A stretch of 64,000 nt of DNA from Candidatus Omnitrophota bacterium (GTDB lineage Bacteria > Omnitrophota > Omnitrophia > Omnitrophales > Aquincolibacteriaceae): positions 146,679 to 210,678 of the forward strand of contig JAKLIQ010000001.1 of assembly GCA_022709525.1 (NCBI GenBank). Reading direction: 5' to 3'. Below are positions 2,146 to 37,681 of the stretch, in pieces. Below the pieces are notes generated by a model. The model worked only from the letters and a program-made list of their open reading frames with translations, was not told the DNA's origin and ran no database searches. Every line of letters begins with the position of its first letter. Within the stretch, counting starts at the first letter, position 1. The translations under genes and the position numbers were made by a program.

Positions 2146-2751
2146 GTGAAACGAATCTGGATCGCAGGGGCGGTGGTGATCGCAGTAGTGGGTATCGCGG
2201 GGATCGCCTCTCTTTTATTTGGGGCGAGGGCATTGGCGACGGTCCCGGCGCCGGTTGAAAATATCCAGTATCCCTTCGAAAAAGGCGGGGGATTGGTCCA
2301 TATCGCGGTCGATGATATCTTTATGGGCGTGGGGATGCTGACCGCGGAACGGAAAAAAGACGATCTCGATACTGTTTTTACCGGCAGTGTTAATTTTGAA
2401 CCCATCTCAAAAACGGCTCAGGGGCGGATCCAGGTGGACCGGATCCGGCTGATCGAGCGGACCCCGGAAGGAAAAGACAGCCGCATTTTTGAGCCCAGCC
2501 GGATCTATGACGAAGCGACCGAGCGGGGGCTTGCCTCGGAGATCCAATTCCCGAAAGGGAATGGAAAATTCCCGTTCGCGTGGGAGAACGGGGAAAATGA
2601 TTATGTTTACTTCGTTTTTAACGATCTCCCGGACGACCTTCTGGAAGCCGACCTTGTGATCACCTACAACGGCAAATTCCCGCATAAGAAACATACGGCC
2701 TACTACGAAGACCGCCTTTCTGTGAAGCGAAAAAGTTACTTTCGTAATTGA
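2146..2751 (+). CDS. hypothetical membrane-anchored protein
   Basis: GTG-start ORF of 201 aa with an N-terminal hydrophobic helix (IWIAGAVVIAVVGIAGIASLLFG). No family recognised. Confidence 0.45.
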   Translation: MKRIWIAGAVVIAVVGIAGIASLLFGARALATVPAPVENIQYPFEKGGGLVHIAVDDIFMGVGMLTAERKKDDLDTVFTGSVNFEPISKTAQGRIQVDRIRLIERTPEGKDSRIFEPSRIYDEATERGLASEIQFPKGNGKFPFAWENGENDYVYFVFNDLPDDLLEADLVITYNGKFPHKKHTAYYEDRLSVKRKSYFRN

Positions 2752-2797
2752 GAATAAATCAAAGGTCGATAGAATAAGAAGCGTTTAGGAGAGTGCT

Positions 2798-5531: not shown

Positions 5532-5549
5532 TGGGCAGGGAGGGAATTG
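5532..5549 (-). repeat. partial duplicate of the tRNA-Phe 3' end (T-arm/acceptor, 18 nt)
   Basis: tgggcagggagggaattg is identical to 5692-5709 of tRNA-Phe. It sits ~140 nt downstream of the tRNA in the tRNA's own orientation. Confidence 0.5.
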
Positions 5550-5691
5550 GCGCTTCCGCTTTGCTTCGGTCGGCCACCCGCCCTATAAACATGACATTCA
5601 GTCATGTTTATAAGCAGGACTCCATTCAATTCCCTCCTTAGAAGTATGGAGGGTAGTCCAAGTTTCTTTGGATTAAAAAAGACGGGAAACT

Positions 5692-5764
5692 TGGGCAGGG
5701 AGGGAATTGAACCCCCGACACAGGGATTTTCAGTCCCTTGCTCTACCGACTGAGCTACCTGCCC
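5692..5764 (-). tRNA. tRNA-Phe (GAA)
   Basis: Reverse complement GGGCAGGTAGCTCAGTCGGTAGAGCAAGGGACTGAAAATCCC...GGTTCAATTCCCTCCCTGCCCA folds as a canonical cloverleaf with anticodon GAA. No CCA is encoded. Confidence 0.9.
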
Positions 5765-5872
5765 ATGTTCGAATTTCGGAAGAGGGCGTCATTATATCAA
5801 TCTTTACTAAAATCACAAGTTTGAAACCACATTTCAACCTACGAGGTTGAAATTTGGGTTCTTCATAGTAGA

Positions 5873-7860: not shown

Positions 7861-8274
7861 TTACTTTTTCCGTTCCCAGGCGCCCGAAGAGGATTGGACC
7901 ATATCGCCGGGCTCGGCCTTCTCGCTTTGAACTTCCGCAAAAGCCCGTTCGATCTCCAGGAGCCCCGAAGCGCCCAGCATGTTCTGTTCCGCAAGCGCTT
8001 CATAAAGGACCCGGCGGTCCTTGTTTTCCGCCGTGACCAATGTGCTGGCGGAGGTGTTGTTTTTCAGGTCCGTCACATATCCTTTATTGTTCTCTCCGAC
8101 AAGACCCTCCCGCTTGAGACCTTGAAGCTGATAATACCGCGCCTGACGGTTTTTCAAGGCCTGCTCGATCTGGGGGGTCATAGTTTTGAAATCGTAATCG
8201 GCGGCCGCGCAAAACGGTGTTGCGGCTGAAAGGACCAGCCATAGGGACAAAAACAAAGTGCAAAGACGTCTCAT
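7861..8274 (-). CDS. ydbL: YdbL-like (DUF1318) periplasmic protein
   Basis: Signal peptide from MRRLCTLFL, with a GAAGGAGGG RBS 7 nt upstream. Third gene of a ydbH-ynbE-ydbL-type operon. Confidence 0.6.
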   Translation of the reverse strand: MRRLCTLFLSLWLVLSAATPFCAAADYDFKTMTPQIEQALKNRQARYYQLQGLKREGLVGENNKGYVTDLKNNTSASTLVTAENKDRRVLYEALAEQNMLGASGLLEIERAFAEVQSEKAEPGDMVQSSSGAWERKK

Positions 8275-8502: not shown

Positions 8503-9354
8503 TCATTTCACCTCAATAAGCCCCATGATCCGGGCGATCTGCGAGAACGCGTCCTTCCGGTCGGTCCTCAGGTCTGCGTTGAGCGTTAGTTTCAGATTAT
8601 AGTCCGGAATGAAGATCTGGAGGAGTATTTTCATACGGTCGCTTTGTAAAAGGTCGACCTTTAAAGACCCTTTCTGGTATCGGATCAATTGCTCTTTTTG
8701 GGTCATGTCCCGGACCTTTTCTTTTTGAGTTGAGACCGGAAGATAAGGCAGGAAAAGATCGAAGAACTTGGCCTGGATGTTGCCGCCCGGCTGGGGCGAC
8801 TCAATGTCGATATGGAATTCGGGGTCTTTTCCCGCGGCCTGCCGGAACGTCAACGATCCTTTTGTGGCGCCTGTCGCGCCGGTAAGATTCTGCGGGTCAA
8901 GCCACTGCCAATCCTCGAGGTCGGAACTTCCAAAATCCGCCGTGAATTCAAAGTTCGAAGCGCTCGAGGCATCGATCGTAAAAGTTCCGGAGACGCCCGA
9001 GCGTGTGGATTTTTCCGGCCGGAAGCCCTCAAAGATGAAACGGACGGGTTTTTTCTCCAGGAAATAGGAAAGCGGGTCAAGCGATTCGATAAATCTTATT
9101 TCGAGAGGAACGGGGCCCTGGCGCGTTTGGAGTTTCCCAGAAAGTTCCGTGATGCGGGCCCGCAGCTGACGGTTTAAGGTCACTCCCTGGATGCGGATCG
9201 AGCCGGCGAAGAATTCTTGCGAAACTTGATTCAGCCGTCGTTCCAGCAGGCTCCGTTCGATCTCCGGCAGGCGGGGAGTTACCCATAAAACCAGACCTAC
9301 GACGGCCGCCAACATAGATAGCCATATCAAAGGCGAAAGTGCTTTTTTATGCAT
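8503..9354 (-). CDS. short YdbH-like / AsmA-family membrane protein
   Basis: 283 aa with an N-terminal TM helix. Its position at the head of ynbE-ydbL mirrors the enterobacterial ydbH-ynbE-ydbL operon, but it is much shorter than E. coli YdbH. Confidence 0.5.
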   Translation of the reverse strand: MHKKALSPLIWLSMLAAVVGLVLWVTPRLPEIERSLLERRLNQVSQEFFAGSIRIQGVTLNRQLRARITELSGKLQTRQGPVPLEIRFIESLDPLSYFLEKKPVRFIFEGFRPEKSTRSGVSGTFTIDASSASNFEFTADFGSSDLEDWQWLDPQNLTGATGATKGSLTFRQAAGKDPEFHIDIESPQPGGNIQAKFFDLFLPYLPVSTQKEKVRDMTQKEQLIRYQKGSLKVDLLQSDRMKILLQIFIPDYNLKLTLNADLRTDRKDAFSQIARIMGLIEVK

Positions 9355-9437
9355 AGCGTATCCTCAAGAGTATTATGAGGTTCGGGCGCAAAAAAGCAAC
9401 TGTCCAATCCTTTTAAGTAAAAGACAATCCCTTTCTT

Positions 9438-9467
9438 GTAAAAGGGGACTTTCTTGAGTAGAATACC
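9438..9467 (+). promoter_or_regulatory. candidate sigma70 promoter (TTGTAA-17-TAGAAT) followed by a hairpin plus T-run
   Basis: TTGTAA, a 17-nt spacer and TAGAAT. Downstream, the hairpin acccgc...gcgggt followed by ttttt (9470-9505) could be a leader or attenuator ahead of the tRNA cluster. Confidence 0.3.
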
Positions 9468-9556
9468 CGCTCTTCGGTATCCTTTTGCGGGTTTTTGTAC
9501 TTGAAGTCCTGCGGTGTTTTTGTGTCCCAAATGTTTGACTTAAATAGCAGAGGTAT

Positions 9557-9629
9557 GCGCCCTTAGCTCAGTTGGTAGAGCAAGTGACTCTTAATCACTG
9601 GGTCGAAGGTTCGAGTCCTTCAGGGCGCA
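9557..9629 (+). tRNA. tRNA-Lys (CTT)
   Basis: GCGCCCTTAGCTCAGTTGGTAGAGCAAGTGACTCTTAATCACTGGGTCGAAGGTTCGAGTCCTTCAGGGCGCA. Anticodon stem AGTGA/TCACT and loop CTCTTAA. Confidence 0.9.
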
Positions 9630-9649
9630 CTTTTTCTTGTTACGGATCT

Positions 9650-9731
9650 GCGGTCGTGGCGAAATTGGCAGACGCGCAAGACTTAGGATCTTGTCCCGAA
9701 AGGGGTGGGGGTTCAAGTCCCTCCGACCGCA
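9650..9731 (+). tRNA. tRNA-Leu (TAG)
   Basis: Type II tRNA with a long variable arm (GTCCCGAAAGGGGT). Anticodon stem CAAGA/TCTTG and loop CTTAGGA. Confidence 0.9.
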
Positions 9732-9796
9732 CTTGTTCCTAATGAACAAGTACGGCACCGTGAGAGCTTAAGGATAGCTCTCTACGGTGACCGCAC
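9731..9796 (+). repeat. conserved double-hairpin tRNA trailer element, copy A
   Basis: acttgttc-CTAAT-gaacaagt is a perfect 8-bp stem. It is followed by a second hairpin gagagc-ttaaggata-gctctc flanked by acggcaccgt/tacggtgaccgca. A homologous unit follows tRNA-Gly. Confidence 0.55.
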
Positions 9797-9880
9797 TTCG
9801 GGATTGGATTAGGAGGTGCCAGTCGCATCTCGGAGCGTCAAGCTCCGGAAAGCGTAGTCCTTGCGCATTGGGCGCAAGGG

Positions 9881-9899
9881 CAAATCCCTCCGACCGCAC
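9881..9899 (+). repeat. partial duplicate of the tRNA-Leu 3' end (T-arm/acceptor fragment)
   Basis: aaatccctccgaccgcac matches tRNA-Leu 9714-9731 (aagtccctccgaccgcac). It lies ~150 nt downstream with no matching 5' acceptor strand, so it is a fragment and not a gene. Confidence 0.5.
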
Positions 9900-10072
9900 C
9901 GAGTTCGAGAAATCGGTGCAATTGACAAAGATAAGACGCGCTTCTATCCTTGTCCATTATTTGTCTTTCAAATGGTTGACAAGGATTGCCCCAATTTCAA
10001 CTTTGTTGAAATTGATAAGTATTGGGACTAGAATACGGCCTCCCGAAGGCCGCGAAGTTATCACCTAAATAA

Positions 10073-10146
10073 GCGAGTGTAGCATAGTGGTAATGCTCTG
10101 CCTTGCCAAGGCAGCTACGAGGGTTCGATTCCCTCCACTCGCTCCA
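10073..10146 (+). tRNA. tRNA-Gly (GCC)
   Basis: GCGAGTGTAGCATAGTGGTAATGCTCTGCCTTGCCAAGGCAGCTACGAGGGTTCGATTCCCTCCACTCGCTCCA. Anticodon loop TTGCCAA. The 3' CCA is encoded. Confidence 0.9.
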
Positions 10147-10211
10147 CTTGTTCTTTATGAACAAGTACGGCACCGTCGAAGCATAAGGACAGCTTCGTAC
10201 GGTGACCGCAT
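10146..10211 (+). repeat. conserved double-hairpin tRNA trailer element, copy B
   Basis: acttgttc-TTTAT-gaacaagt followed by cgaagc-ataaggaca-gcttcg. The second stem differs from copy A by compensatory changes (gagagc/gctctc versus cgaagc/gcttcg). Confidence 0.55.
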
Positions 10212-10233
10212 CTAAATAGATAAGGCGGTTCAT

Positions 10234-11580
10234 GTGTTGTTTAAAAAAAATAAAGAAGCGTCCCCAGTAACGGCATCTCCCTCCGGTAATGTCGAAACCC
10301 TAGAATCTCCCATCAAGATCAAACTTCAGGACGGCAAACCCTGCGAGAAGATCCTGACGATCGAAGTCGCCCAGGACCGCATCAGCGAGGAATACGAGTC
10401 TTTTTATAAAGCGATCGCGCCACGGGCGAAGGTTCCCGGATTCCGTCCCGGAAAAGTGCCGCGCGATGTATTGATCATGCACTACGAAAAAAATGCCAAC
10501 GACTCGGTACTTGAAACACTTCTTTCAGAGTCCTTGCCGAAAGCTCTGCGCGAAAAAGACCTGAATCCGTTGGCGACGCCCGAGATCCGGGACATTCAAT
10601 TTACCAAAGAAAAACTTGCTTATAAGGCCCACGTCGAGGTTCGCCCCAAGGTCAAACTTTCCCGCATCACGGGTTTAAGTGCGAAGAAGGAAAAAGTCTC
10701 GATCAAGCCGGAAGATGTCGAAAAAGCCCTCAAACAGACCCAGGAAATGCACGCGCAGTACAAAGCAGTCGAGGGCCGGTCGGCCAAGATGGGCGATTTT
10801 ATCATCACCGATTATGTCTGTCTGATCGACGGCCAAGAAGTGGAAAAGCGCAATGACGACTGGATGGAACTGAAGGAAAAGGAATATCTGAAGGGTTTTT
10901 CCGCCCAGCTTGTCGGTGTTTCCGTCGGCGAAGAAAAAGATGTTCAGATCTCTTTCCCTCAGGACATGGCGGACAAGCGCGCCGCGGGAAAAACCGCGGT
11001 TTTCAAGATCAAAGTCAAAGAGATCAAAGAAAAAACACTGCCCGCGCTCGATGATGATTTCGCGAAACAGGCCGGCGATTACAAAAATCTGGACGACCTT
11101 AAACAAAAACTTGCCGCCGATCTTGAAAAACGCGCCGCCGATGAAAAAGAAGCGGCTTTCGAGCGGGAACTTCTCAATGAGCTCGCGAAACACAATAAAA
11201 TCGAGATCCCCGCGGGACTTTTGCAGCGGCGGGCGGAATATTTGACGGAGCAGGCGCGGCAGCGTTTTCTTCAGCAGGGCGGCACGGCCGAAATTTTCGA
11301 TAAAGAAAAAGAAAAAATGCAAAAGGAATTCGAATCCGAAGCGCGCCGCCAGATCCATATCGCTTTTCTTCTCGATGAGATCGCGGATGTCCAGGGGATC
11401 AAGGCGGATGACGCGGATCTTGTAAAAAAATACGAGATGCTTGCCCGGCAATACCGGCAGCCGAAAGAAACCGTCGAGAAATATTATCAGGAACACAAAG
11501 AAGCCAAAGAAACTTTGCTGGATCAAGTCCGAAACGAAAAAGTCATCGAATTCTTGAAGCAGAACGCGAAAACCAAATGA
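10234..11580 (+). CDS. tig: trigger factor
   Basis: PGFRPGKVPRDVLIMHY signature, PPIase middle domain and C-terminal arm. tig followed by clpP is the usual synteny. The N-terminus may be over-extended in the ORF track. Confidence 0.85.
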   Translation: MLFKKNKEASPVTASPSGNVETLESPIKIKLQDGKPCEKILTIEVAQDRISEEYESFYKAIAPRAKVPGFRPGKVPRDVLIMHYEKNANDSVLETLLSESLPKALREKDLNPLATPEIRDIQFTKEKLAYKAHVEVRPKVKLSRITGLSAKKEKVSIKPEDVEKALKQTQEMHAQYKAVEGRSAKMGDFIITDYVCLIDGQEVEKRNDDWMELKEKEYLKGFSAQLVGVSVGEEKDVQISFPQDMADKRAAGKTAVFKIKVKEIKEKTLPALDDDFAKQAGDYKNLDDLKQKLAADLEKRAADEKEAAFERELLNELAKHNKIEIPAGLLQRRAEYLTEQARQRFLQQGGTAEIFDKEKEKMQKEFESEARRQIHIAFLLDEIADVQGIKADDADLVKKYEMLARQYRQPKETVEKYYQEHKEAKETLLDQVRNEKVIEFLKQNAKTK

Positions 11581-27162: not shown

Positions 27163-28671
27163 ATGGCAAAAGGAGTAGGCGTTTACATCGGAAACAATGA
27201 AGTGATCGCTGTTTCGACGGCCTATGTCAGCATGACGCCCGTGATCAAAAGTTTCGCGATCGAGCCTATTAACCCCGAAGCCCCTCAAGAGCCCATGATT
27301 GGCAAAGAGGCTCACAAATTTAAAAAATTAAGTCCAGAATCCCGAGCTATTGTTAAAGCCCTGGAAAAAATCAAAGAACCCGGGGCGTATGTCAACGCTG
27401 CTATCAGTCCCTCTCAGGTCGCAACACGTCATTTTATTATGCCGGCCGTCCCCAAAAAGGACGAACCCGGCGCGGTCCGGCATGAAGCCAGCCGCTACAT
27501 TCCGTTCAAGATCTCCGAATCCATCATCGATTACCATGCGCAGATGACCCATCGGAATGTATTCTCCGTGACGGCTTCCGCGGTCCGCGCCGAGGTCCTC
27601 GAAAAATATCTTGAAGACCTTCGCGCCGCTTCAACGAAAGTCCTCATGATCGAACCGGCCTATACCGCGGTCGCGCGCGGATTTGCCGCTCTCAATATGG
27701 CCCGGAAGATGAAAGCCAACGGGTTCGTGATCCTTCAATCCGACGGGAACGTCAATATCACCCTCGCTTCCAAGGGGATCGTTTATCTTTCCCGGGATTT
27801 TATCTTAAGCGGGAAGATCGACGAGGATAAAAACCGTTTTGCCGAGGAGCTTAGGGCTTCGCTTGATTATTTTTATAAGTTGACCGGCGGCGAGGCGATC
27901 GAGCAGATCTTTTTGGCCGGAGCTGGGGATTTTAAAGTGTGGATCGAACATTTGGAGCACGCGTTCAATTATACGATCCGTTTTGATGTCGCGCAGCTAC
28001 CCAGCGCCAAGAATATAACGCCCGAAAATCTCAATATGATCCTAGCCGCTTTTGGAGCGTCGCTCCGGTCTTTGGGGTACAGCTCGCCCCTAGGAGAGAT
28101 CAAATTATTGCCTAAGGATGAGCGCCGGTCGAGCTTGAAGAATTTTTTGATATTCCTTGGGATCGAGTGTCTGGCTATTCTTATTTTATTCGCAGCGGTC
28201 CGGTTTGTGATTTTTCAGCCCTATTTAATGCATTTACAGGCTCGCAGCGAAGCTGTTCTTGGAAATGCGAACCGTGAAAATCCGAACTACGCTTCTTTGT
28301 CTCTCGAAAGTCTTACCGCGGAAAGAGAAAAGCTGGGCGCTCGTGTCCGGCAATTAAAAACTTTTTTTGGAGATAAATATCCAACTTCTGTTTTTCTAAT
28401 GAGTTTGGGACAGGGGTTGCCGCAGTCCATTAAATTAGAATATGTTTCGCTGGAAAAGGAACCCGGAAAAGCGAAGAAGCGCCTGAATATACGAGGGACC
28501 TGTTCTTTGGGGAACGCCGAAAAAGAAACATTGATCGTCAGCAGTTGGGTAAAATCTCTTTCAGCAAGGAAAGTGATGGCCGATAGTTTTAGCGAGATCA
28601 AGCTGGAGGAGATCAAGCGTGAAAAGACCCAGGATCGAGGAATAACCCGCTTCAGGGTAGTCGGGGAATAA
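27163..28671 (+). CDS. type IV pilus assembly PilM-PilN fusion protein
   Basis: N-terminal actin-like PilM region (ASRYIPFKISESIIDYHAQ matches the PilM pattern), then a TM segment and a PilN-like periplasmic coiled-coil domain. 502 aa. Confidence 0.6.
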   Translation: MAKGVGVYIGNNEVIAVSTAYVSMTPVIKSFAIEPINPEAPQEPMIGKEAHKFKKLSPESRAIVKALEKIKEPGAYVNAAISPSQVATRHFIMPAVPKKDEPGAVRHEASRYIPFKISESIIDYHAQMTHRNVFSVTASAVRAEVLEKYLEDLRAASTKVLMIEPAYTAVARGFAALNMARKMKANGFVILQSDGNVNITLASKGIVYLSRDFILSGKIDEDKNRFAEELRASLDYFYKLTGGEAIEQIFLAGAGDFKVWIEHLEHAFNYTIRFDVAQLPSAKNITPENLNMILAAFGASLRSLGYSSPLGEIKLLPKDERRSSLKNFLIFLGIECLAILILFAAVRFVIFQPYLMHLQARSEAVLGNANRENPNYASLSLESLTAEREKLGARVRQLKTFFGDKYPTSVFLMSLGQGLPQSIKLEYVSLEKEPGKAKKRLNIRGTCSLGNAEKETLIVSSWVKSLSARKVMADSFSEIKLEEIKREKTQDRGITRFRVVGE

Positions 28672-28675
28672 GAGA

Positions 28676-29230
28676 ATGATGAACGCGTTTGGAATAAAAT
28701 TCAAAGAGCAACAGCGAGAACAGGCGGTTATGGTCGCGGTGGGGGTAGCTATGTTGATCGCATGTTATGCCCTGATCATACAGCCCGTTTTTAAAAATGT
28801 TACCGCGTTAAGGCAGGAAGTCTTCGATTCCCAAAAAAGGCTGGATCTTTATCAGGAGATCGAGATTTCCAAGGGGAGTTTGAGGGATCTCGAAAGTTCG
28901 CTTGTGACGATGAAAGACCGGTCTCTTTTTCTTGGAAAAATATCGGACCTTGCGAGCCAGAGCCAGTTAAATGTTCAGACTTTGACCCCCAGGACGCAGG
29001 CCGAGGGGGATTACAGCAAGCTGAGCGTTGAATTAGAAGGGAAAGGATCTTTTTTTGCTTTGCTCAAATTCCTAAAAGCGCTGGAAGGAGGAGGCATCAG
29101 TCTTTCGATCAAGAGTATTTCTTTGCTGCGGCAGAGTTCTCTTCGGAAAGAAGAAGAAAAATATCCTCTCCAGATCCAGATCGACATGGGGACCATCTTA
29201 AAATCACAGGCTAAGAAAACCAATGACTAA
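28676..29230 (+). CDS. PilO-like pilus assembly protein
   Basis: N-terminal TM helix, coiled coil and a C-terminal ELEGKGSFFALLKFLKALE motif typical of PilO/GspM-like proteins. Confidence 0.5.
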   Translation: MMNAFGIKFKEQQREQAVMVAVGVAMLIACYALIIQPVFKNVTALRQEVFDSQKRLDLYQEIEISKGSLRDLESSLVTMKDRSLFLGKISDLASQSQLNVQTLTPRTQAEGDYSKLSVELEGKGSFFALLKFLKALEGGGISLSIKSISLLRQSSLRKEEEKYPLQIQIDMGTILKSQAKKTND

Positions 29231-29771
29231 AATCAAAATATGTTTTGCCTCGATCTTTTGGCTCGCATTTTGCTTTTTAACCCCTGCTCTCTACGGGGAA
29301 AGTCCGGCACCTCAAGAGAATCCGATCCCGGGCAGTCCGTCCGAATTTTCCCAGTCAACGGCAGGAGTTGATACAGCTGTTCAAACAGCTCAGCAAGAGA
29401 TCCGCGATCCTTTCGCAACTCCTTCCGGCCAGAACGTCCCCGCGGTCGCCGCTGTTTCTGCGGATATGCCGGAGATCAAAGTAGATCTTCAAGGGATCGG
29501 TTTTGGCAGCAAGGAAGCTTATGCTTTAATCGGCGGCGACATCTTTCATATTGGGGAGGAAAAACGCGGTATTAAATTACTTGAGGTTCGAAGGCATGAG
29601 GTCGATATCTTAGTGAACGGAGGAAAAGTCACGTATCGATTGTTCCCGGGCCAGGAACTTGAAAAGGCCAAAGAGAGGGAACGCAAAAAGAAAGGCGATA
29701 CGGCTCTTTCCGCTCAACAACCGGAGCAGGATCCGTCATCTTTTACGGGAAGGGAGCAGCCATCATTATGA
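29223..29771 (+). CDS. PilP-like lipoprotein/periplasmic pilus assembly protein
   Basis: Signal peptide, an RDPF motif, and small size. Lies between the pilO-like gene and the secretin. Confidence 0.45.
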   Translation: MTKIKICFASIFWLAFCFLTPALYGESPAPQENPIPGSPSEFSQSTAGVDTAVQTAQQEIRDPFATPSGQNVPAVAAVSADMPEIKVDLQGIGFGSKEAYALIGGDIFHIGEEKRGIKLLEVRRHEVDILVNGGKVTYRLFPGQELEKAKERERKKKGDTALSAQQPEQDPSSFTGREQPSL

Positions 29772-31606
29772 AGAAAACCATTCAGCATTTAAAGGTAGCG
29801 ATTTTTTTAACATTAGCGCTTTTTTTATGCGTGCCTTTTACACTTAGAGCGGAAGATTCCGGAAGCCCGTGGGCCCATGGCGAATCGCCGTCGACAACAG
29901 GGGTGACCGATTCCGGGAGTTCCCCGACGTTCGTTCAGACCTCTCCGGATCAGCCACCGCCCGCTTCGGATGATGTCCAAGTTGAAAGGACGGCCGATGG
30001 GAAATATTATCTCGACTTCAAGGCGGCCTCGCTCATCAATGTATTAAACGTGCTTTCGAATCTAAGCGGGATCAATTTTGTTGCCGGCAGAGAAGTCGCG
30101 GATCGTCAGGTTAATATGACGCTTGATAATGTGACCTTGGATGATGTTTTGGACGCCCTCTCCAACAGTTGTAATGTCACTTATGACATGATGCCGGGAA
30201 GGAATATCTATCTTTTCAGGGCTTCGGCGGATTCGGCGGATAAACCCAAGCTCCTCACCAAGGTTTTTAAGCTTTACTATGTTCAAGTCAGCAAAATAAA
30301 GGAAATTGAATCTTCCTCCTCCAGTTCTTCCGGAGGCAGTTCTTCTTCCGGAACAAGCAGCTCGAGCGGCTCAAGCGGTGGGCTCGTGACCTTATCAACC
30401 TCAGATACCGATGATACAGATCTCGAAAATTCCGCAATCGTAAAAGCGATTGAAAAGATCCTTTCAGAGCGTGGAAAAGTTTCGGTCGATGACCGTTCGA
30501 ACAGTTTGATCGTCACCGATACCGAAGATCGTCTCAAAATGATCGAATCTGCGATCACGCAGCTAGATCGTCCGCTCAACCAGGTGCTCATCAACGTGCT
30601 GCTGATCGAGACATTCGAAGATCTGGATCGAGATTTGGGCCTCATTTGGGGAGATACGGACGGATTTTTCGGAACAATCTCGGGAGGGTCTCAAGATACC
30701 AATTTCCCTTTTTTTACAGGCCCGGTAGGGGGTCACTCAGGCACCTCTTTTTGGGATACCGCATACAATATGTTTAAAAATACTGGAAAGCAATTTAATC
30801 CATCTCATGACAGCGGAGCTCTTGCTACTGGCACCAGAGATTTTACGGCTTTCTCGATTACGTTGCAGGCGTTAGAAAGCGCCTCGAAACTTAAGGTTTT
30901 GGCCAAGCCTAAAATCCTTGTCTTAGATAATCATCCAGCGCTTATCAAAATCGCGACCAATGCCGCGATTGGCACAACAACGGTCACAGAAGCCGGAGGC
31001 GCGGGCACAAGTTCCACGAGCATTGAACGCTCTGAGATTGGCACCATTCTCCGTGTGACACCTCTTATCAACACAGGTGACCGTGTGACTATGACCGTCG
31101 AGCCAACTTTCGCAACCGTGGATCAGTCAGCGATCACAGTTGCCGCAACAGAGACAGGAGACCCCACTGTTCGTACCGCCAGGACGACCATGATGATCAA
31201 TGACGGGCAGACGATCGCGTTGGGCGGCTTGCTTTTTAGCAATCAATCCAACGGGAACAGAAAAGTACCTTTCTTTGGGAATCTTCCAGTGGTAGGCAAA
31301 GCGTTGTTTACCAACAATACAAAATCTCTTCAAGATCGCGAGTTGATACTTTTTGTGACGCCTAACATCATCACAAATTCTTCCGTTCTTGAGACGCTCA
31401 GTGTGCCGGAAAAGCGCTTGCAATACGAAGATGAGTCTGCGCCTTGGTGGAAAGTGAAGCAAAAGCAATGGTATAAAGAAATGAAAGAAGGCCCGGAGAA
31501 GGATCTTGATTTTGATAGTTATTTTAATGTTCGCAAAAAACTGATCGATACGACGCTGGATACCCTGGATCAGACCGCGAAGGCGCCGTCCAAAGGGAAG
31601 CCGTAA
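29768..31606 (+). CDS. secretin (PilQ/GspD family)
   Basis: Signal peptide, N-domains, a Ser/Gly-rich linker (SSSSSSSGGSSSSGTSSSSGSSGG), and a C-terminal secretin domain (IALGGLLFSNQSNGNRKVPFFGNLPVVGKALF...LILFVTPNII). Confidence 0.8.
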   Translation: MKKTIQHLKVAIFLTLALFLCVPFTLRAEDSGSPWAHGESPSTTGVTDSGSSPTFVQTSPDQPPPASDDVQVERTADGKYYLDFKAASLINVLNVLSNLSGINFVAGREVADRQVNMTLDNVTLDDVLDALSNSCNVTYDMMPGRNIYLFRASADSADKPKLLTKVFKLYYVQVSKIKEIESSSSSSSGGSSSSGTSSSSGSSGGLVTLSTSDTDDTDLENSAIVKAIEKILSERGKVSVDDRSNSLIVTDTEDRLKMIESAITQLDRPLNQVLINVLLIETFEDLDRDLGLIWGDTDGFFGTISGGSQDTNFPFFTGPVGGHSGTSFWDTAYNMFKNTGKQFNPSHDSGALATGTRDFTAFSITLQALESASKLKVLAKPKILVLDNHPALIKIATNAAIGTTTVTEAGGAGTSSTSIERSEIGTILRVTPLINTGDRVTMTVEPTFATVDQSAITVAATETGDPTVRTARTTMMINDGQTIALGGLLFSNQSNGNRKVPFFGNLPVVGKALFTNNTKSLQDRELILFVTPNIITNSSVLETLSVPEKRLQYEDESAPWWKVKQKQWYKEMKEGPEKDLDFDSYFNVRKKLIDTTLDTLDQTAKAPSKGKP

Positions 31607-31623
31607 GGAAGGATGGGGCGACT

Positions 31624-33318
31624 GTGCGCATCAACGCTCTTTTAGGGGATTTGCTTGTTGAAAAGGGGGCCATCACTCGCACCCAACTGAACCAAGCGTT
31701 GACCCAGCAGAAAAATTCACGCGAACCGCTAGGTCAAGTGCTCATCCAGATGGGGTTATTGGATGAGGCCCAGCTGCGCATGGTCCTTTCCGAACAGTTG
31801 GGCGTTTCCTTTCTTACCGCCAATCAGTTGAAGCCGCGCACAGATCAGCGCCTCAAAGAATGTATCCCGCCGGATTTTGCCCTAGCCAATTTGGTTCTGC
31901 CTTTAGACCGCCAGGGACAAGTACTTAAAGTGGCTGTGGCTAAGGTGCCCGACATCATTTTCCTCGATAATCTTCGCAAAATTACAGGACTTGATATCGT
32001 GACAGTCCTTTCTACAGAGAACGAACTTCGTCGCGCGATCGAAGCTTATTACAGCAGCACGGACCTTCAGGAGTTTGTTTCTTCCTCGGAAGTGGATGAT
32101 ATCAAAGAGGATTATGGCGATCAAAAAGACGAGAACAAGGTCGATCTGGAAGCGACAATCGCGGAAGCCGGAAAAGGGCCGGTCGTCAAACTCGTCAATT
32201 TTATGATCAAAAAAGCCTTGGATGATCGCGCTAGCGATATCCATATCGAGCCATTCGCCGCAAAGATCTCGGTTCGTTACCGCGTGGACGGCAATCTTTA
32301 TGAGCTTCCTCCTCCGCCCAGAGAGCTGCATAATGCCATCGTTTCCCGTATCAAGATCCTATCAAAGATGGATATCGCGGAAAAACGTATCCCGCAGGAC
32401 GGCTCCTTTTCGATCCAGTACAATGATCAGAAGATCGATGTCCGCGTTTCGACGATCCCAATTATCTATGGCGAAAAAGTTGTCATGCGTATCCTTGCAA
32501 AACGCATGGAACTTTTAAACATGCAGACGCTCGGTTTTGAGCCCGAACAATTGGCGCTTTTTGAAAAAGCGCTGATGCGGCCGTACGGGCTTCTTTTGGT
32601 GACCGGTCCCACCGGAAGCGGTAAAAGCACAACGCTTTATGCGGCATTGAATAAACGTCTTTCTCCGGAGATCAATATTCTCACGATCGAAGATCCGGTC
32701 GAGTATCAGCTTCAGGGGGTCAATCAAGTTCAGGTGAAACCGGATATCGGGCTGACGTTTGCGAGCGGTCTTCGGGCATTCCTCCGCCAAGATCCCGACG
32801 TCATTCTCGTGGGAGAAGTTCGCGATCTTGAGACCGCAGAGATCTGTATTCGCGCCTCGCTTACGGGGCATTTGGTGTTAAGCACGCTTCACACTAATGA
32901 CGCGGTAACGGCAGTAACCCGTCTGATCGATATCGGGATCCCTCCTTATTTGGTCGCGGGGAGTCTTGGCCTTGTCGCTGCGCAACGCTTACTCCGCCTC
33001 TTGTGCCCTCATTGCAAGGTCCCCTATAAGCCCGATGCGAAGATTGTCGACGAATACAAGATCAAAGCCGGTACGCTTTATAATGCTAAAGGATGCGAAA
33101 AATGCCGGAATATCGGTTACTGGGGTCGCATGGCGATCTATGAAGTTTTACCGATCGATGAAGACATTCGTCGCCTTATCACCAAGGACGCAGACCTTGA
33201 GAAACTGCGTCAGGTCCAAAAACAAAAACATTACGAAAGCCTTCTCCAGAACGGATTAAGGAAGGTAGAGCAGGGTATTACGACCCTTGACGAGGTTTTA
33301 AGCGTCGCTTATGAATGA
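31624..33318 (+). CDS. type IV pilus / type II secretion assembly ATPase (PilB/GspE family)
   Basis: T2SSE_N-like N-domain, Walker A VTGPTGSGKSTT, Asp/His boxes, and a tetracysteine zinc motif (CPHCK...CEKC). Confidence 0.85.
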   Translation: MRINALLGDLLVEKGAITRTQLNQALTQQKNSREPLGQVLIQMGLLDEAQLRMVLSEQLGVSFLTANQLKPRTDQRLKECIPPDFALANLVLPLDRQGQVLKVAVAKVPDIIFLDNLRKITGLDIVTVLSTENELRRAIEAYYSSTDLQEFVSSSEVDDIKEDYGDQKDENKVDLEATIAEAGKGPVVKLVNFMIKKALDDRASDIHIEPFAAKISVRYRVDGNLYELPPPPRELHNAIVSRIKILSKMDIAEKRIPQDGSFSIQYNDQKIDVRVSTIPIIYGEKVVMRILAKRMELLNMQTLGFEPEQLALFEKALMRPYGLLLVTGPTGSGKSTTLYAALNKRLSPEINILTIEDPVEYQLQGVNQVQVKPDIGLTFASGLRAFLRQDPDVILVGEVRDLETAEICIRASLTGHLVLSTLHTNDAVTAVTRLIDIGIPPYLVAGSLGLVAAQRLLRLLCPHCKVPYKPDAKIVDEYKIKAGTLYNAKGCEKCRNIGYWGRMAIYEVLPIDEDIRRLITKDADLEKLRQVQKQKHYESLLQNGLRKVEQGITTLDEVLSVAYE

Positions 33319-34639
33319 TCCCTCAGTCGAAAAAAGATCCGCCAACCTCGCGAAAGACAGGGAGCTTTCTTTCGAGTGTCATATCCGTCCTCATGATGCT
33401 CCGCATAAATCTCAAGTTCTGATCATTCAGGCGCCTACCGAGGATATGGCGGTCCAACAACTGCTCGCGCAGGGGCATGTGGTCGTATCCGTCCGCGTTT
33501 TGGGATCCCGCCCCTGGAATTTCCGGGAGATGGTTTTAGGCCCCTTCCGGCCCTCCGGGATCAAATCGCCCAGGGTCTCGCTTTCATTTTTTAACCATGT
33601 TTCGATCCGGGAATTGATCTTTTTTGCGATCCAGCTGGCGACGCTCCTTAAAGCTGGGATCGCGCTTCTCCGGGCCCTTGAAATTATCCGTCGCGGGACG
33701 GCCAATCCCTATTTCCAAAAGGTGATCAAAGGGCTTGGCCAGGATGTCAGCGGCGGCGCGCCCTTGAGCGCCGGACTTGAGAAACATCAGAAAGTTTTCC
33801 CTTGGGTTTGGATCAACCTTGTTAAGGTGGGAGAAACGACGGGAAAACTGCCGGAAGTTCTGGAGGAGATCGCGCATTACCAGGAAGCTTCAGAGCGTAT
33901 TAAAAGCAAGGTTATCTCAGCTTTTTTTTATCCCGGCATTTTGACATTGGCCGTTATCGCGGCTTTGACTTTTTTGTTGATCTTTATCGTTCCGAAATTT
34001 GCGGAGATCTTCCAATCCCAAAATATGCCGCTTCCCGCGATCACCCAGGTTGTTATTGGCGCAAGCGATGCCGTTCGTTTTCAATTTCCCTACATCATGA
34101 CCGCTGTCATCTTGATCATTTTTGGCATCCGCTTCCTTAAAAGGACTCCCGCAGGGAAGATCGGCTACGATCATTTCCGCCTTAATGTCCCCATTTTTGG
34201 CGATCTTCTGGTGCAAGTAGGCGTGGTCCGGTTTTCCCGAAGTCTCGCGACGCTTTTAAAAGCCGGCGTTCAGATCCTCCAGGGGCTTGAGATCTCCGGG
34301 AAGCTCGTTGAGAACCGCTTTATTGAAAATAAACTCAAGGAAGTGGCTTTGGCGGTGCGCGGCGGCCAAGGCCTTGGGATCCAGCTTGAATACAAAAAGA
34401 TCTTTCCCGTTTTCATGACCCAGCTCGTCAGCGTCGGCGAGGAAAGCGGTCAACTGGAACGATTTCTCGACCTTATCGCAAATTTCTATGAAAATCGGGT
34501 GGATACTTTTCTCGCGCGTTTGGCGACGCTTTTAGAACCCATCCTTCTTCTTTTTATGGGTGGCGTGATCGGAACGATCGTGGTTTCCATGTTCCTTCCG
34601 ATCATCGAGCTTTCTACGGGCGGCGCGGCGGGGATGTAG
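33311..34639 (+). CDS. pilus / T2SS inner-membrane platform protein (PilC/GspF family)
   Basis: Two repeated GspF-type cytoplasmic domains with three TM segments. Overlaps the ATPase stop. Confidence 0.8.
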   Translation: MNDPSVEKRSANLAKDRELSFECHIRPHDAPHKSQVLIIQAPTEDMAVQQLLAQGHVVVSVRVLGSRPWNFREMVLGPFRPSGIKSPRVSLSFFNHVSIRELIFFAIQLATLLKAGIALLRALEIIRRGTANPYFQKVIKGLGQDVSGGAPLSAGLEKHQKVFPWVWINLVKVGETTGKLPEVLEEIAHYQEASERIKSKVISAFFYPGILTLAVIAALTFLLIFIVPKFAEIFQSQNMPLPAITQVVIGASDAVRFQFPYIMTAVILIIFGIRFLKRTPAGKIGYDHFRLNVPIFGDLLVQVGVVRFSRSLATLLKAGVQILQGLEISGKLVENRFIENKLKEVALAVRGGQGLGIQLEYKKIFPVFMTQLVSVGEESGQLERFLDLIANFYENRVDTFLARLATLLEPILLLFMGGVIGTIVVSMFLPIIELSTGGAAGM

Positions 34640-34644
34640 TGTTC

Positions 34645-34673
34645 TTGATGTCATTATTGAAAAGGGCTATACT
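34645..34673 (+). promoter_or_regulatory. candidate sigma70 promoter for the pilin operon (TTGATG-17-TATACT)
   Basis: -35 TTGATG at 34645-34650, exactly 17 nt of spacer, and -10 TATACT at 34668-34673. This is ~65 nt upstream of the pilin ATG, which has an AAGGAG RBS. Confidence 0.45.
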
Positions 34674-34740
34674 GCGGCTAACATCTTAGGGCGCAGATCA
34701 GGAAAAAAAGAATTTAATCTTTAACGAAGGAGAAAAAAAC

Positions 34741-35226
34741 ATGAAAACTAAAAAGGGTTTTACACTGATCGAGCTTCTCATCGTGGTCATCATCATCGCC
34801 GTTTTAGCGGCTTTAATTCTTCCGCGTTTCTTAAGTCAGCCGGAGCGTGCCAGGGTCGCTGAGGCCCAGCAGCAGCTCGGCGCTCTTCGCCGCGCCCAGA
34901 TTGCGAATATGGACGCAACAGGAGACGACAGTTTTATAGCCGTTACAGCCACTACGACCGGTTCAGGAGGTACTACCGCAGGATCGGGGTGGGGAGTCCT
35001 TGGTTTAGTGGAGCCAGACGCGGCACAGGGGGCGAATTTTACTTATACGTGCACCGCAGGGACCACTCCCACAACCAACTTGTGTACTGCCACGCGTAGC
35101 ACCATTCCTGGGAATACAATTATCCTTCGGGAGGATGGTAATTATTTATGCGGCGGAACGTATTGGCCGGTGGGCGGAGCGGCGCAAACAGATACCAGCA
35201 CGACCGGATGCACTACTCGAGCATAG
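34741..35226 (+). CDS. type IV pilin (prepilin with class III signal peptide), Thr-rich C-terminal region
   Basis: MKTKKG|FTLIELLIVVIIIAVLAALILP is an N-methylation-type leader plus hydrophobic helix. The C-terminal half is Thr/Gly-rich with four Cys. Confidence 0.8.
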   Translation: MKTKKGFTLIELLIVVIIIAVLAALILPRFLSQPERARVAEAQQQLGALRRAQIANMDATGDDSFIAVTATTTGSGGTTAGSGWGVLGLVEPDAAQGANFTYTCTAGTTPTTNLCTATRSTIPGNTIILREDGNYLCGGTYWPVGGAAQTDTSTTGCTTRA

Positions 35227-35289
35227 GTTTTCTTTTTGATAGCGGGTTTCGTTGTTATTTTTCAAAAAATAAAAAGCGAGGGTCGCGGC

Positions 35290-35766
35290 ATGAGATATGA
35301 GGGTAAGGGTTTTACATTGGCCGAGCTTCTCATTGTCATCGTGATTTTGGGTATTTTGGGCGGCATTGCTCTTCCGAAATTTTTCCCGCAAGCTGAAAAA
35401 GGACGCGTCGCGGAAGCCGTAGGGATGTTAAGCGCTATTCGTATGGGAGAGGAAGCCTATAAGCTTGAGAATGGCGTATATCTTGCTATCACCAACAGTG
35501 CCGCCGGCACTGAGTGGAATAAAATCGGAATGGATAGCCCCAATACTAGCACCGCTGACAGCCGTAATTTTGAATACAGTGTAGCGCTAGTTTCGTCCAG
35601 AAGCAGTACGGGACTTCCCGGGTTTGATGCTACTGCTACGCGATGCACTGCGCAGTCATGGTGCAAGAACGATAGCCCATCTGCCGAATATGGCGGCAAG
35701 ACGATCATTCTCAATGAATTAGGCGTTTGGGATTCCGCCGCAACACACCCATTTAAGCCGTCTTAA
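35290..35766 (+). CDS. type IV pilin paralog 2
   Basis: MRYEGKG|FTLAELLIVIVILGILGGIALP. ATG at 35290; the ORF track's upstream start is unlikely. Confidence 0.75.
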   Translation: MRYEGKGFTLAELLIVIVILGILGGIALPKFFPQAEKGRVAEAVGMLSAIRMGEEAYKLENGVYLAITNSAAGTEWNKIGMDSPNTSTADSRNFEYSVALVSSRSSTGLPGFDATATRCTAQSWCKNDSPSAEYGGKTIILNELGVWDSAATHPFKPS

Positions 35767-35796
35767 TCTTACAAGTATTTACCATCCTCAAAAGCC

Positions 35797-36330
35797 ATGG
35801 GGAGTAGCGTTATGTTTCATCAGGGAGGTTCGTTAAGAAAACAGCGCGACATTCCCCGAAGTGCGGGGTTTACGTTAACTGAGGTGATGATTGTAGTTAT
35901 CATCATCGGGGTTCTTGCCACGCTCGCCATCCCTCGTTTTTTTGGCCAAACCGAAAAAGCCAAAGCTGCCGAAGCAATTAACATGTTAAGCGTTATTCGG
36001 CGCGCCCAGCTTCAGTATTATGACGCTCACGATAGAGTATACGTATCGATCCCGGATAACTGCAGCCCATCAGGTGCTGATGTGGCTACCAGTAAAACCG
36101 ATTTTTTAGAAAAACTTGGGATCGAAATTCCCGCCTGCGCTAACGCCCATTGGACTTATAGTACCGCCAACGTTGCCAATAGCGGTGGGACAAATTCCCT
36201 TATTGTCACAGCCACCCGGAAGCCCATTGGGGGTGAAAAAGTCTCAGGCGCCTTGACCATCGATGATAATGGGACGTGGAGCGGAGCAGGGGAATATGCG
36301 AAATCTGCGGAAAAATACTGGCCGTTCTAA
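35797..36330 (+). CDS. type IV pilin paralog 3
   Basis: Leader ...PRSAG|FTLTEVMIVVIIIGVLATLAIP. ATG at 35797 or 35812. Confidence 0.7.
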   Translation: MGSSVMFHQGGSLRKQRDIPRSAGFTLTEVMIVVIIIGVLATLAIPRFFGQTEKAKAAEAINMLSVIRRAQLQYYDAHDRVYVSIPDNCSPSGADVATSKTDFLEKLGIEIPACANAHWTYSTANVANSGGTNSLIVTATRKPIGGEKVSGALTIDDNGTWSGAGEYAKSAEKYWPF

Positions 36331-36473
36331 GATATATCCATCTTCCCAAGCTATTCTTTCCCATCTAAAACAAGATCGCTTCTCATCTTTTGAAAACCGT
36401 CGATTTTTGCTTTTTTTGATCTCGCCTGTTACATTTTATAGTAGGTTTCGTTGAAGACAAAGGCAGGTTTGAC

Positions 36474-36887
36474 ATGAAAAAAGAAATTGGTTTTACGCTT
36501 TTGGAGATCATGGTCAGCATGGTAGTCCTGACCGTTGTGGCCGTAGGAGTGATCGGTACGGTTGCTTTTACAAAGCGGTCTGCGGCCGAAATGCAACAAC
36601 GGCTAAGCGCTATTGATCTCGCGGAAAAAAAGATCGCGGAGATTAAAACCCAAAAGATTGGCGCCATTCCCTTAACGCACGAAACCATTACCACCGCTTT
36701 TTCGGAGTTGTCTAGTGCTGTGATGGCCTATAAGGTCGAAAAGCTTGGCGTACCGTATCTTTTCAACGTCGAAATTGAAATACGTTGGGATTATGGCTGG
36801 CGGGACAAAGCAAATCCATGCGCAACAAATTGGGATTCTTGCGATAAAAAAATGATTTTACGCACAGTTTATTTTAGCCCGTCTTGA
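36474..36887 (+). CDS. minor pilin / pseudopilin
   Basis: MKKEIG|FTLLEIMVSMVVLTVVAV prepilin-type N-terminus. 137 aa. Confidence 0.6.
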   Translation: MKKEIGFTLLEIMVSMVVLTVVAVGVIGTVAFTKRSAAEMQQRLSAIDLAEKKIAEIKTQKIGAIPLTHETITTAFSELSSAVMAYKVEKLGVPYLFNVEIEIRWDYGWRDKANPCATNWDSCDKKMILRTVYFSPS

Positions 36888-36991: not shown

Positions 36992-37681
36992 TTGGAGCTT
37001 TTGCTCGCCCTTTCAATTCTTTCTTCCGTGCTTATCGCCGGGGGGGTCTTGTCTATTTCCGTTGCCAAAATACTTTATCGCGCAAATGCGCAAACCCGGG
37101 CCTTTGACACGGTTAATTCTGTTATTCGGTTCATGGAAAAGGATATTAAGCAAATGGTGCCTGGCACCGTTGGCGTTTACAATCAATTATGCAGCAACGC
37201 AAGGGGCACTTCCGCGGGTACCTTAACGGGTTATGGCCCCATGTTTGGATGGCGGCTTGCCCTTCTTGATTTTCAAAGCAGTCTGCCGCTTTCAAAAACA
37301 GGATCTAATAATTGTGGTTGGTGGGGATTATCAGAAAGATATGGCTATTGCTATAATGTAATTTCGAGCCGCGCCGGAGGGTTCGACGGATACATTTCTA
37401 ATTATGCAAGCGATGTGGCGGTCGTGCCTTACATCCAGAAGGAAGATTTCAAAACTCCCGTGTCTGATGAGGATTTTTTAGCGTGTCGCGATAATCCGTG
37501 CTATAAAACCCAACACGACTCTCCTGCCACCTTCTGCCCTAATATATGGGACATAGAAACTGATTCTGAAGGAAATCAAACCTTAATTCTCAGAATCGGA
37601 GCGATCGTTACAAAGGACGGGAAAACGTTGGCAAGGGCCGGTGTCCGGAAATATTTTGCCCTGCCGAAGGTGAAAACGTGA
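36992..37681 (+). CDS. minor pilin / pseudopilin (true start upstream of the track ORF)
   Basis: Upstream of the TTG at 36992 the frame stays open back to a stop at 36917 and encodes ...SVHG|LTLLELLLALSIL, a prepilin cleavage motif. There is no in-frame ATG/GTG/TTG upstream; an ATT at 36935 sits 7 nt after AAAGGAGG. Confidence 0.5.
   Translation: MELLLALSILSSVLIAGGVLSISVAKILYRANAQTRAFDTVNSVIRFMEKDIKQMVPGTVGVYNQLCSNARGTSAGTLTGYGPMFGWRLALLDFQSSLPLSKTGSNNCGWWGLSERYGYCYNVISSRAGGFDGYISNYASDVAVVPYIQKEDFKTPVSDEDFLACRDNPCYKTQHDSPATFCPNIWDIETDSEGNQTLILRIGAIVTKDGKTLARAGVRKYFALPKVKT

Follow-up and report, generated by a model that had tools for sequence, protein, structure and literature searches.

A mosaic double-hairpin repeat family at the ends of tRNA genes in Omnitrophota

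The small repeats known from bacterial chromosomes, among them repetitive extragenic palindromes (REP), bacterial interspersed mosaic elements (BIME) and miniature inverted-repeat transposable elements (MITEs), scatter between genes, and integrative elements recombine inside tRNA genes. In enterobacteria, REP and BIME sequences are short imperfect palindromes with compensatory changes; they are intergenic and co-transcribed, form hairpin mosaics in either orientation, and are mobilised by RAYT, an IS200/IS605-like Y1 transposase. The attachment (att) repeats of tyrosine integrases in tRNA genes reportedly have a sublocation at the T-loop, with a block of identity that runs to the 3' end. Here we describe a 64-nt double-hairpin unit (DH, with hairpins hp1 and hp2) that follows two tRNA genes in a 64,000-nt stretch of chromosome (contig JAKLIQ010000001.1, positions 146,679 to 210,678; hereafter the window), whose trigger-factor gene (tig) has relatives labelled Omnitrophota or Omnitrophica. 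The nearest case that we found in the literature is a palindrome of Methanopyrus kandleri, CGTTA-N9-TAACG, which lies about 10 bp after roughly half of the tRNA genes (PMC5217627). Like DH it is a lineage-specific palindrome that follows some of the tRNA genes at a fixed distance, but it belongs to an archaeon, is single and short, stands 10 bp from the tRNA, and lacks a double hairpin, antisense copies at 5' ends and a pseudo-tRNA partner.

The gene order at the locus is tRNA-Lys(ctt), tRNA-Leu(tag), tRNA-Gly(gcc), tig, clpP. A preliminary description of this DNA had placed the same unit after tRNA-Leu and at the CCA of tRNA-Gly, and this was borne out by two 64-nt copies that are 85% identical over a 66-nt repeat, the two preceding bases included. 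DH is often accompanied by a partner module (mid, in the forms mid-A and mid-B). The parts of the locus are as follows.

9557..9629, plus strand: tRNA-Lys(ctt) (ARAGORN; Rfam tRNA, 74.3 bits)
9630..9645, plus strand: DH deletion remnant after tRNA-Lys, ctttttc ttgt tacgg, that is the hp1 5' arm and the start of hp2 (from the sequence)
9650..9731, plus strand: tRNA-Leu(tag), with discriminator A at 9731 (ARAGORN, Rfam)
9732..9795, plus strand: DH copy 1 (fold -34.4 kcal/mol, z -7.5; covariance model 88.8 bits)
9732-9738/9744-9750: hp1 of copy 1, with loop ctaat; linker TA at 9751-9752
9753-9767 with 9777-9793: hp2 of copy 1, with bulges T9783 and A9790 and loop 9768-9776; terminal CA at 9794-9795
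9796..9898, plus strand: mid-A, a pseudo-tRNA module (sequence repeats, fold, homologous modules in relatives)
10073..10146, plus strand: tRNA-Gly(gcc), with CCA encoded at 10144-10146 (ARAGORN, Rfam)
10147..10210, plus strand: DH copy 2 (fold -33.0 kcal/mol, z -6.4; covariance model 88.4 bits)
10147-10153/10159-10165: hp1 of copy 2, with loop tttat
10168-10182 with 10192-10208: hp2 of copy 2, with bulges T10198 and A10205; terminal CA at 10209-10210

The region of the tig start codon lies 23 nt beyond copy 2. In both copies hp1 closes a 5-nt loop with 8 bp, and the eighth of these pairs recruits the last A of the tRNA. The earlier picture of an 8-bp hairpin followed by a second one held, except that acggcaccgt and tacggtgaccgca are not spacers: they pair as the lower stem of hp2, a single long hairpin in which about 15 bp are formed and two bases are bulged. 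The compensatory changes seen in the second stem were also real, as the apex alleles GAGAGC/GCTCTC and CGAAGC/GCTTCG amount to three compensated pairs between the window copies. After the stems the two copies continue with CA+CTTCGGG and CA+TCTAAAT. The hp1+ACGG pattern had 0.00 expected occurrences in the shuffled window. No third copy was found in the 64 kb, either by blastn-short or by the covariance model, which with filters off gave no match above 20 bits elsewhere in the window.

Relatives of the unit were sought in other genomes, and the loci obtained are designated here by L numbers. A pattern scan of one genome per species returned eight matches, of which six were true copies, all in metagenome-assembled genomes (MAGs) of Omnitrophota; the other two, L004 (labelled Bordetella) and L005 (Micrarchaeota), were chance matches without hp2. 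A metagenome scan with the hp2 pattern returned at least 119 stretches, with 7 true copies among the matches listed. Most of the other metagenome matches were high-GC coding DNA, and 88 of the matches listed had a 16-nt gap, for the most part in a single recurrent coding segment. In this set (L009-L127) the degenerate hp2 pattern recurs dozens of times in a coding segment conserved in high-GC soil bacteria (YGAVGAGTVYGDR in our own translation), a caution for any pattern scan with G+C-rich stems. Further loci were gathered through trigger-factor homologues.

In a first alignment of 19 copies (MAFFT), 95% of the cells were paired and 18 of the 22 pairs had changed on both sides, values that no shuffle reached. 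The covariance model then found 29 copies at E<1e-6 in 184 kb of Omnitrophota DNA. In their alignment 96.1% of cells were paired and 19/22 pairs showed changes on both sides; the observed pairing and covariation were reached in 0/500 shuffles, and controls with slid partners were 31-50% paired. The covariation score was 0.62, against 0.27 for shuffled alignments and less than 0.13 for slid partners. This alignment was fitted to the model and so tilts towards structure, but the margin is large. Within the family the hp1 stem is wholly replaced from copy to copy (CTTGTTC, CCAAATT, TTGATTC, CTAAATC, CTTTTTC) and its YYNAT loop is kept; hp2 retains its base, a loop of the WTAAGGWMA type and, almost without exception, the two 3'-strand bulges, and its apex takes the form of discrete covarying alleles.

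All 29 copies adjoin the end of a tRNA, the end of a pseudo-tRNA or another DH. None lay away from such ends in the 184 kb, and their covarying stems are kept. Of the readings first offered, a repeat family targeting tRNA 3' ends is the one supported here, but it is too narrow, as five copies stand in antisense at 5' ends and the unit is one module of a mosaic. The majority are sense copies at 3' ends, found after Leu(tag), Leu(cag), Gly(gcc), Gly(tcc), Ser(cga), Lys(ctt) and, with a gap of 30 nt, Val(cac). The antisense copies (n=5; L060, L062, L065, L071 and L001) touch the 5' end of a tRNA on the opposite strand: Arg(cct) and Arg(tcg) in L060, L065 and L071, Lys(ttt) in L001, and in L062 a truncated tRNA whose 5' part matches the tRNA-Arg of L065. 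Read on the DH strand, the preceding sequence in both orientations resembles an acceptor 3' strand with a final A, and the loop motifs YYNAT and WTAAGGWMA are kept on that strand in both.

Mismatches at paired positions were unevenly distributed, with 18 G.U and 8 A.C in sense copies and 0 and 4 in antisense copies (hand-calculated Fisher p ~0.02). This is a C-to-T bias on the sense strand of the tRNA in both kinds of copy, and it indicates that the copies belong to tRNA transcription units, though it cannot separate selection on the RNA from transcription-linked mutation. Promoter-like sites stand 5' of the tRNAs, and none was seen between a tRNA and its DH:

9436..9464, plus strand: promoter-like TTGTAA-17-TAGAAT, 5' of tRNA-Lys/Leu (consensus match only; if used, it would transcribe through DH copy 1 and mid-A)
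10006..10034, plus strand: promoter-like TTGAAA-17-TAGAAT, 5' of tRNA-Gly (consensus match only; if used, it would transcribe through DH copy 2 towards tig)

The putative tRNA-Gly promoter differs among the loci. L130 has an intact TTGACA-17-TAGAAT, and in the window, L003 and L129 an insertion (82 nt at window 9947-10028, with an 18-nt inverted repeat at 9946-9963/9969-9986) lies inside the promoter spacer, its end giving the new -35-like TTGAAA of 10006-10034.

Comparison of the orthologous Lys-Leu-Gly-tig locus among relatives, given here with the identity of tig to that of the window, showed that the sites differ in their content.

Window: after tRNA-Lys the remnant; after tRNA-Leu DH and mid-A; after tRNA-Gly DH
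L137 (tig 92% identical): Lys and Leu sites not covered; after tRNA-Gly hp1 and mid-A
L136 (88%): after tRNA-Lys DH; after tRNA-Leu a different DH; after tRNA-Gly hp1 and mid-A
L129 (82%): after tRNA-Lys two DH variants and mid-B; after tRNA-Leu DH and mid-B; tRNA-Gly site empty
L130 (81%): after tRNA-Lys a remnant; tRNA-Leu site empty; after tRNA-Gly DH and mid-B
L131 (75%): after tRNA-Lys DH; after tRNA-Leu DH and mid-B; after tRNA-Gly DH
L132 and L133 (~65%): Lys and Leu sites without DH or mid in L132 and not present in L133; nothing after tRNA-Gly in either

The empty tRNA-Gly site of L003 and L129 reads GCTCCA|TTTTAAAATAGATAAGG, and empty and filled sites share their flanks (L003 GCTCCA|TTTTAAAATAGATAAGGCGG; window GCTCCA|DH|TCTAAATAGATAAGGCGG). 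A nearly identical copy has also changed place: the DH after tRNA-Lys in L136 is identical at 61/64 positions to the window copy after tRNA-Leu, and the tRNA-Leu of L136 carries another allele. The degenerate version noticed after tRNA-Lys proved to be a genuine remnant of decay (ctttttcttgttacgg, at 9630-9645), as full copies stand there in L002 and L129 (with hp1 CTTTTTC..GAAAAAG) and in L131 and L136 (with other DH alleles). In L137, hp1 (246-264) has the same stems as window 10147-10165 and the loop ATAAA for TTTAT, its reverse complement, in a relative with a 92% identical tig. In the Arg-antisense copies of other metagenomes the apex allele CGAAGC/GCTTCG, that of hp2 in the window Gly copy, is joined to a different hp1, which points to shuffling of modules. 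L135, from a second sample, has the window arrangement, with 100% identity over 1,567 nt. That the same sites are empty, filled or differently filled, together with the relocated copy, speaks for a repeat that moves or recombines and against a functional trailer that is fixed in place.

The mid modules carry copies of the tRNA that they adjoin. The last 18 nt of tRNA-Leu (X#1, 9714-9731: the 3' half of the T-loop, the T-stem 3' strand, the acceptor 3' strand and the discriminator) recur at 9881-9898 as the terminus of mid-A (X#2), a 17/18 copy. Before this terminus come, in order, a short 5' strand, complementary to the tRNA-end copy in its T-stem 3' strand, and two hairpins, CCGGAGC-GTCAA-GCTCCGG and CCTTGCGC-ATTGG-GCGCAAGG. 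Homologues of mid-A stand after tRNA-Leu(cag) in L007, L069 and L123 and after tRNA-Gly in L136 and L137, each closing with a copy of the local tRNA 3' end. Mid-B occurs in the window after a tRNA without a DH:

5691..5765, minus strand: tRNA-Phe(gaa), followed by mid-B on the same strand (ARAGORN)
5532..5637, minus strand: mid-B, a pseudo-tRNA module (nhmmer E=5.8e-27; consensus fold a three-way junction)

It begins with a strand (anti-X, GGAGGGAATTGAA, 5637-5625) that is the exact reverse complement of the T-loop and T-stem 3' strand of tRNA-Phe, continues with a long hairpin and the invariant GGGTGGCCGACCGnAGCnAAGCGGAnGCGCC, and ends in X#2 (5548-5532), which repeats the tRNA-Phe 3' end at 17/17 positions; G+TTTTTT comes next. 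The same three parts are found in mid-B generally: 10-14 nt complementary to the T-loop and T-stem 3' strand of the neighbouring tRNA, exactly or with 1-2 mismatches; a core in which a long hairpin covaries and the segment GGGTGGCCGACCGnAGCGAAGCGGAGGCGCC is invariant; and a direct copy of 17-20 nt, from T-loop position ~57 to the discriminator or CCA. The consensus fold is a three-way junction, and the arms match the Phe, Lys-ctt, Lys-ttt, Leu, Gly and Val tRNAs at their respective loci. At the antisense loci a mirror module is made from the first 12-13 nt of the tRNA (acceptor 5' strand through D-stem 5' strand). Rfam gave no support to readings of mid as a tmRNA-like or permuted tRNA, a Y RNA or a ribozyme.

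Direct repeats bound these modules or the DH+mid composites (17/18 at window Leu, 17/17 at Phe, 20/20 at L130 Gly). In L003 the 5' acceptor strand is matched perfectly by the displaced copy, CGACCGC, whereas with the working end, CGGCCGC, it forms a G.U pair; displaced copies have decayed, with 2-3 mismatches in L129 Lys, L131 Leu and L008; and the ancestral T-run trailer lies after the displaced copy. These observations fit recombination into the tRNA gene, a model that leaves unexplained the DH alone at window tRNA-Gly, the mid without DH at window tRNA-Phe and the use of one core for many tRNAs. Several other arrangements at tRNA genes were noted in these genomes. After tRNA-Val(gac) in L123 (10980-11343, minus strand) a 90-nt repeat, in which the tRNA 3' end is joined by a trailer of 65 nt and the inverted copy, stands on both sides of a mid-B core; a truncated second core comes next, as in a tandem array, tRNA 5'-end copies lie upstream of both Val tRNAs, and there is a decayed module at ~7885-8054. 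In L002 (~2465-2790, minus strand) a tRNA-Leu(tag) is split in the D-loop by an insert of ~190 nt; within the insert, inverted repeats of 17 bp (CGATCTCTCGAGTTGAT / ATCAACTCGAGAGATCG) enclose a second, complete tRNA-Leu(tag), and a DH lies after the outer 3' fragment. A hairpin module, TCCGCCACAAAGC(G/TT)TGGCGGA, recurs in varied tRNA-flank contexts (L136 1200-1230, L137 350-380, L001 1610-1635), which suggests a larger set of mosaic units in these genomes.

Our best explanation, to which we would give a probability of about one half, is that DH is a non-autonomous, structure-dependent DNA repeat of Omnitrophota that occupies the termini of tRNA genes, is co-transcribed with the tRNA, folds on itself and forms mosaics with the pseudo-tRNA modules. 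It would be placed and reshuffled at the outer boundary of the gene, either in sense just beyond the mature 3' end or in antisense just before the 5' end; a target at the acceptor-stem end of the tRNA gene, presented at the DNA level, would lead one to expect this symmetry. Mid contributes inverted and direct copies of the neighbouring tRNA from the T-loop to the 3' end or, in the mirror form, from the 5' end up to the D-stem 5' strand; such copies are a signature of recombination into a tRNA gene. The mover may be an enzyme encoded elsewhere, a tyrosine or HUH-type recombinase that acts on hairpin or duplex DNA, or the copies may spread by ectopic gene conversion. Once in place, DH would probably be transcribed with the tRNA as its trailer or leader. 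Its hairpins could be kept because the insert must not upset the folding and processing of the tRNA, or because they are themselves the substrate of recombination, and any effect on termination or processing would be a by-product.

Several points weigh against this explanation. No transposase or recombinase was found among the 50 open reading frames (ORFs) of the window or next to any copy, and DH has neither terminal inverted repeats nor a target-site duplication. The relocated copy can also be explained by ectopic gene conversion between existing copies, not transposition. Copy number is seemingly low, at a few copies per 64 kb and at most 5 seen in one MAG, counts that come from parts of genomes, and the frequencies are biased because 13 loci came from searching for DH itself. 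Moreover, exact abutment to mature tRNA ends, strong covariation and conserved loops fit a functional RNA equally well. In such a reading DH would be a module of tRNA precursors, a 3' trailer or 5' leader that directs or insulates processing by RNase P or RNase Z, blocks 3' exonucleases, or terminates or attenuates transcription, for example from tRNA-Gly to tig. This appears doubtful to us. That the first base past the discriminator or CCA already belongs to hp1, which stacks on the last A, that G.U and A.C mismatches track the transcribed strand of the tRNA in both orientations, that CA and a T-run follow many copies elsewhere and that promoter-like sites are placed as described would all suit it, as would the covariation. 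DH is nevertheless dispensable, as shown by the empty sites with the same flanks in close relatives and by its absence from 3/5 window tRNAs, and antisense transcripts would carry its reverse complement, yet the loops are kept on the DH strand. The window copies have no U-tract, the T-runs appear to predate DH (empty site L130), and the strand asymmetry can come from transcription-linked C-to-T mutation instead of selection. The proposal of a conserved processing structure is thus weakened by presence and absence among close relatives and by use in both transcriptional orientations. A stable tRNA-linked small RNA, released to act in trans (for instance by binding a protein through the UAAGGA-type loop), is highly improbable: the conserved loop motifs speak for it, and a cut at the boundary with the tRNA, made by RNase P or RNase Z, would set one end precisely, but the copies vary in presence, stand in both orientations, decay and belong to no Rfam family.

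Slightly more doubtful than a precursor module is that DH and mid are the two arms of an attP-only mini-element, either integration scars or a mini-cassette mobilised in trans by an element that integrates into tRNA genes. Recombination into the T-loop (in the mirror form, the D-loop) would have given a new tRNA end with DH, and the displaced original end would close mid; the anti-X:X helix might serve as a folded single-strand att site, as in CTXphi. The attP of lambda-type phages is comparable in size to DH + mid + X, which measures 170-250 bp. This account is consistent with the direct repeats of 17-20 nt (T-loop ~56/57 to discriminator or CCA), with the acceptor fit of the displaced copy in L003, with the decay of such copies and the T-run trailer after X#2, and with the 90-nt repeat flanking the L123 core on both sides, as in tandem integration. 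It is set back by the DH-only sites (window Gly, L131 Lys and Gly, L075, L006), where the locus has no displaced tRNA end, by mid without DH at window tRNA-Phe and by the lack of any integrase found. In addition, one core has arms for at least six tRNAs (Phe, Lys-ctt, Lys-ttt, Leu, Gly, Val), so an integrase of fixed specificity is not an explanation. Whether DH and mid are instead substrates of integron- or CTXphi-like single-strand recombination, directed at folded tRNA-gene DNA and re-specified for each tRNA by the target-derived repeats of mid, is a further proposal that we consider unlikely. There hp2-CA would mimic an acceptor/T minihelix ending in NCA, and insertion at the 3' end of the strand that folds as a cloverleaf would yield both sense-3' and antisense-5' copies.

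The described systems differ from DH in several respects. Rho-independent terminators, in which a run of T begins 0-2 nt past the hairpin, share with it a G+C-rich hairpin 3' of a tRNA and, at several copies elsewhere, the T-run that follows, but they are not conserved in sequence across loci or species, nor inverted at 5' ends, and DH in the window has no U-tract. A termination structure at the window copies, as first suggested, had to be given up, the terminator scan being empty at 9732-9795 and 10147-10210. A T-run stands directly after the tRNA at the empty site L130, and the T-runs that follow DH and CA elsewhere (L002, L006, L007, L008, L069, L075, L123) therefore look like the ancestral tRNA trailer, which would be older than DH. 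REP and BIME sequences are likewise palindromic, compensated and mosaic, with secondary effects on termination and stability. However, they number hundreds of copies scattered after ordinary genes, whereas DH is low-copy, confined to tRNA termini and made of two unlike hairpins. We rejected an assignment to them, since DH has no GTAG head, which REPs carry at the 5' side of a single palindrome of ~35 nt, and only 2 copies in 64 kb, both at tRNAs; no RAYT (Y1 HUH transposase) was found among the 50 window ORFs. With MITEs such as Correia/CREE, RUP and ERIC it has in common that it is a small, non-autonomous, structured repeat, polymorphic in presence and co-transcribed with its neighbours, but its target is a gene boundary and not a short sequence. 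Its ends (CTTGTTC.../...GACCGCA) do not form inverted repeats; at the Gly site it is flanked by CCA| and |TCT, and comparison with the empty site shows no duplication. PATE elements derived from IS200/IS605 have two similar subterminal hairpins that one TnpA binds, guide bases 5' of the foot of each hairpin and a conserved target of four or five nucleotides at the left flank. They were set aside because hp1 and hp2 are unrelated, hp1 is variable and occupies the unit from base 1 onwards, so that a guide would have no place, and the left flank has only ..CA in common (GCT in L075). A relation to IS91, whose targets CTTG and GTTC are found in hp1, was rejected because other copies have the unrelated stems CCAAATT, TTGATTC and CTAAATC.

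Closer likenesses are found among recombination sites. As in integron attC sites, hp2 is an imperfect hairpin whose lower stem is conserved and whose terminal stem-loop varies and covaries, two bases of one strand being extrahelical and structure being kept over sequence; this is a resemblance only, as the RYYYAAC and GTTRRRY boxes are absent from both window copies and no IntI integrase or cassette ORF was found in the window or next to any copy. The anti-X-core-X arrangement resembles CTXphi attP(+), in which two inverted half-sites fold into a duplex that mimics the target, except that the helix here is only 9-13 bp. The composites resemble att repeats in tRNA genes in that the segment between the T-loop and the tRNA 3' end is directly repeated, the pseudo-3' end displaced downstream decays, and the working tRNA stays intact. 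They differ in that the insert is 100-250 bp and gene-less, with an extra inverted anti-X, a mirror version at 5' ends and one core at many tRNAs. This type of direct repeat is present at DH+mid composites and absent at DH-only sites such as window tRNA-Gly, and the 150-250 nt between the X repeats are non-coding, with no integrase or cargo. Phage and plasmid collections gave no blastn match, and the sole match of the scan in a viral contig, L128, was due to chance, lying in coding DNA without hp2. With Rfam 15 only tRNA and tmRNA reached threshold in window 9300-10400, L129, L130, L131, L001 and L007, and DH and mid were uncovered even at E up to 10, so that the suggested Rfam search yielded no family. 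Literature searches returned no description of DH or mid elements; the DH family is undescribed as far as Rfam 15 and full-text literature searches show.

Two further features of the window were noted. A small ORF at 43153-43542 (plus strand) matches the four-helix family of 23S rRNA intervening-sequence and bAvd-like proteins (E=1.4e-37), with no adjacent reverse transcriptase, and a 1,333-aa ORF at 37678-41679 (plus strand), without a Pfam match, lies directly 3' of a type IV pilus / type II secretion cluster (27163-36887).

The family found here is gene-less, bound to the exact outer boundaries of tRNA genes and mirrored at both ends, a habit that is undescribed for bacterial repeats. If it is mobile, it would represent an unrecognised mode of tRNA gene recognition, by structure or by copying of the target, and the tRNA flanks of Omnitrophota would have been remodelled within ~10% protein divergence. 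Were the single-strand proposal true, homing would follow a copy-the-target principle that is undescribed for bacterial mobile DNA. The covariance model of DH is usable as a lineage marker. In Omnitrophota genomes DH and mid create pseudo-tRNA ends and long structured leaders and trailers, and these will mislead predictors of tRNAs, terminators and islands.

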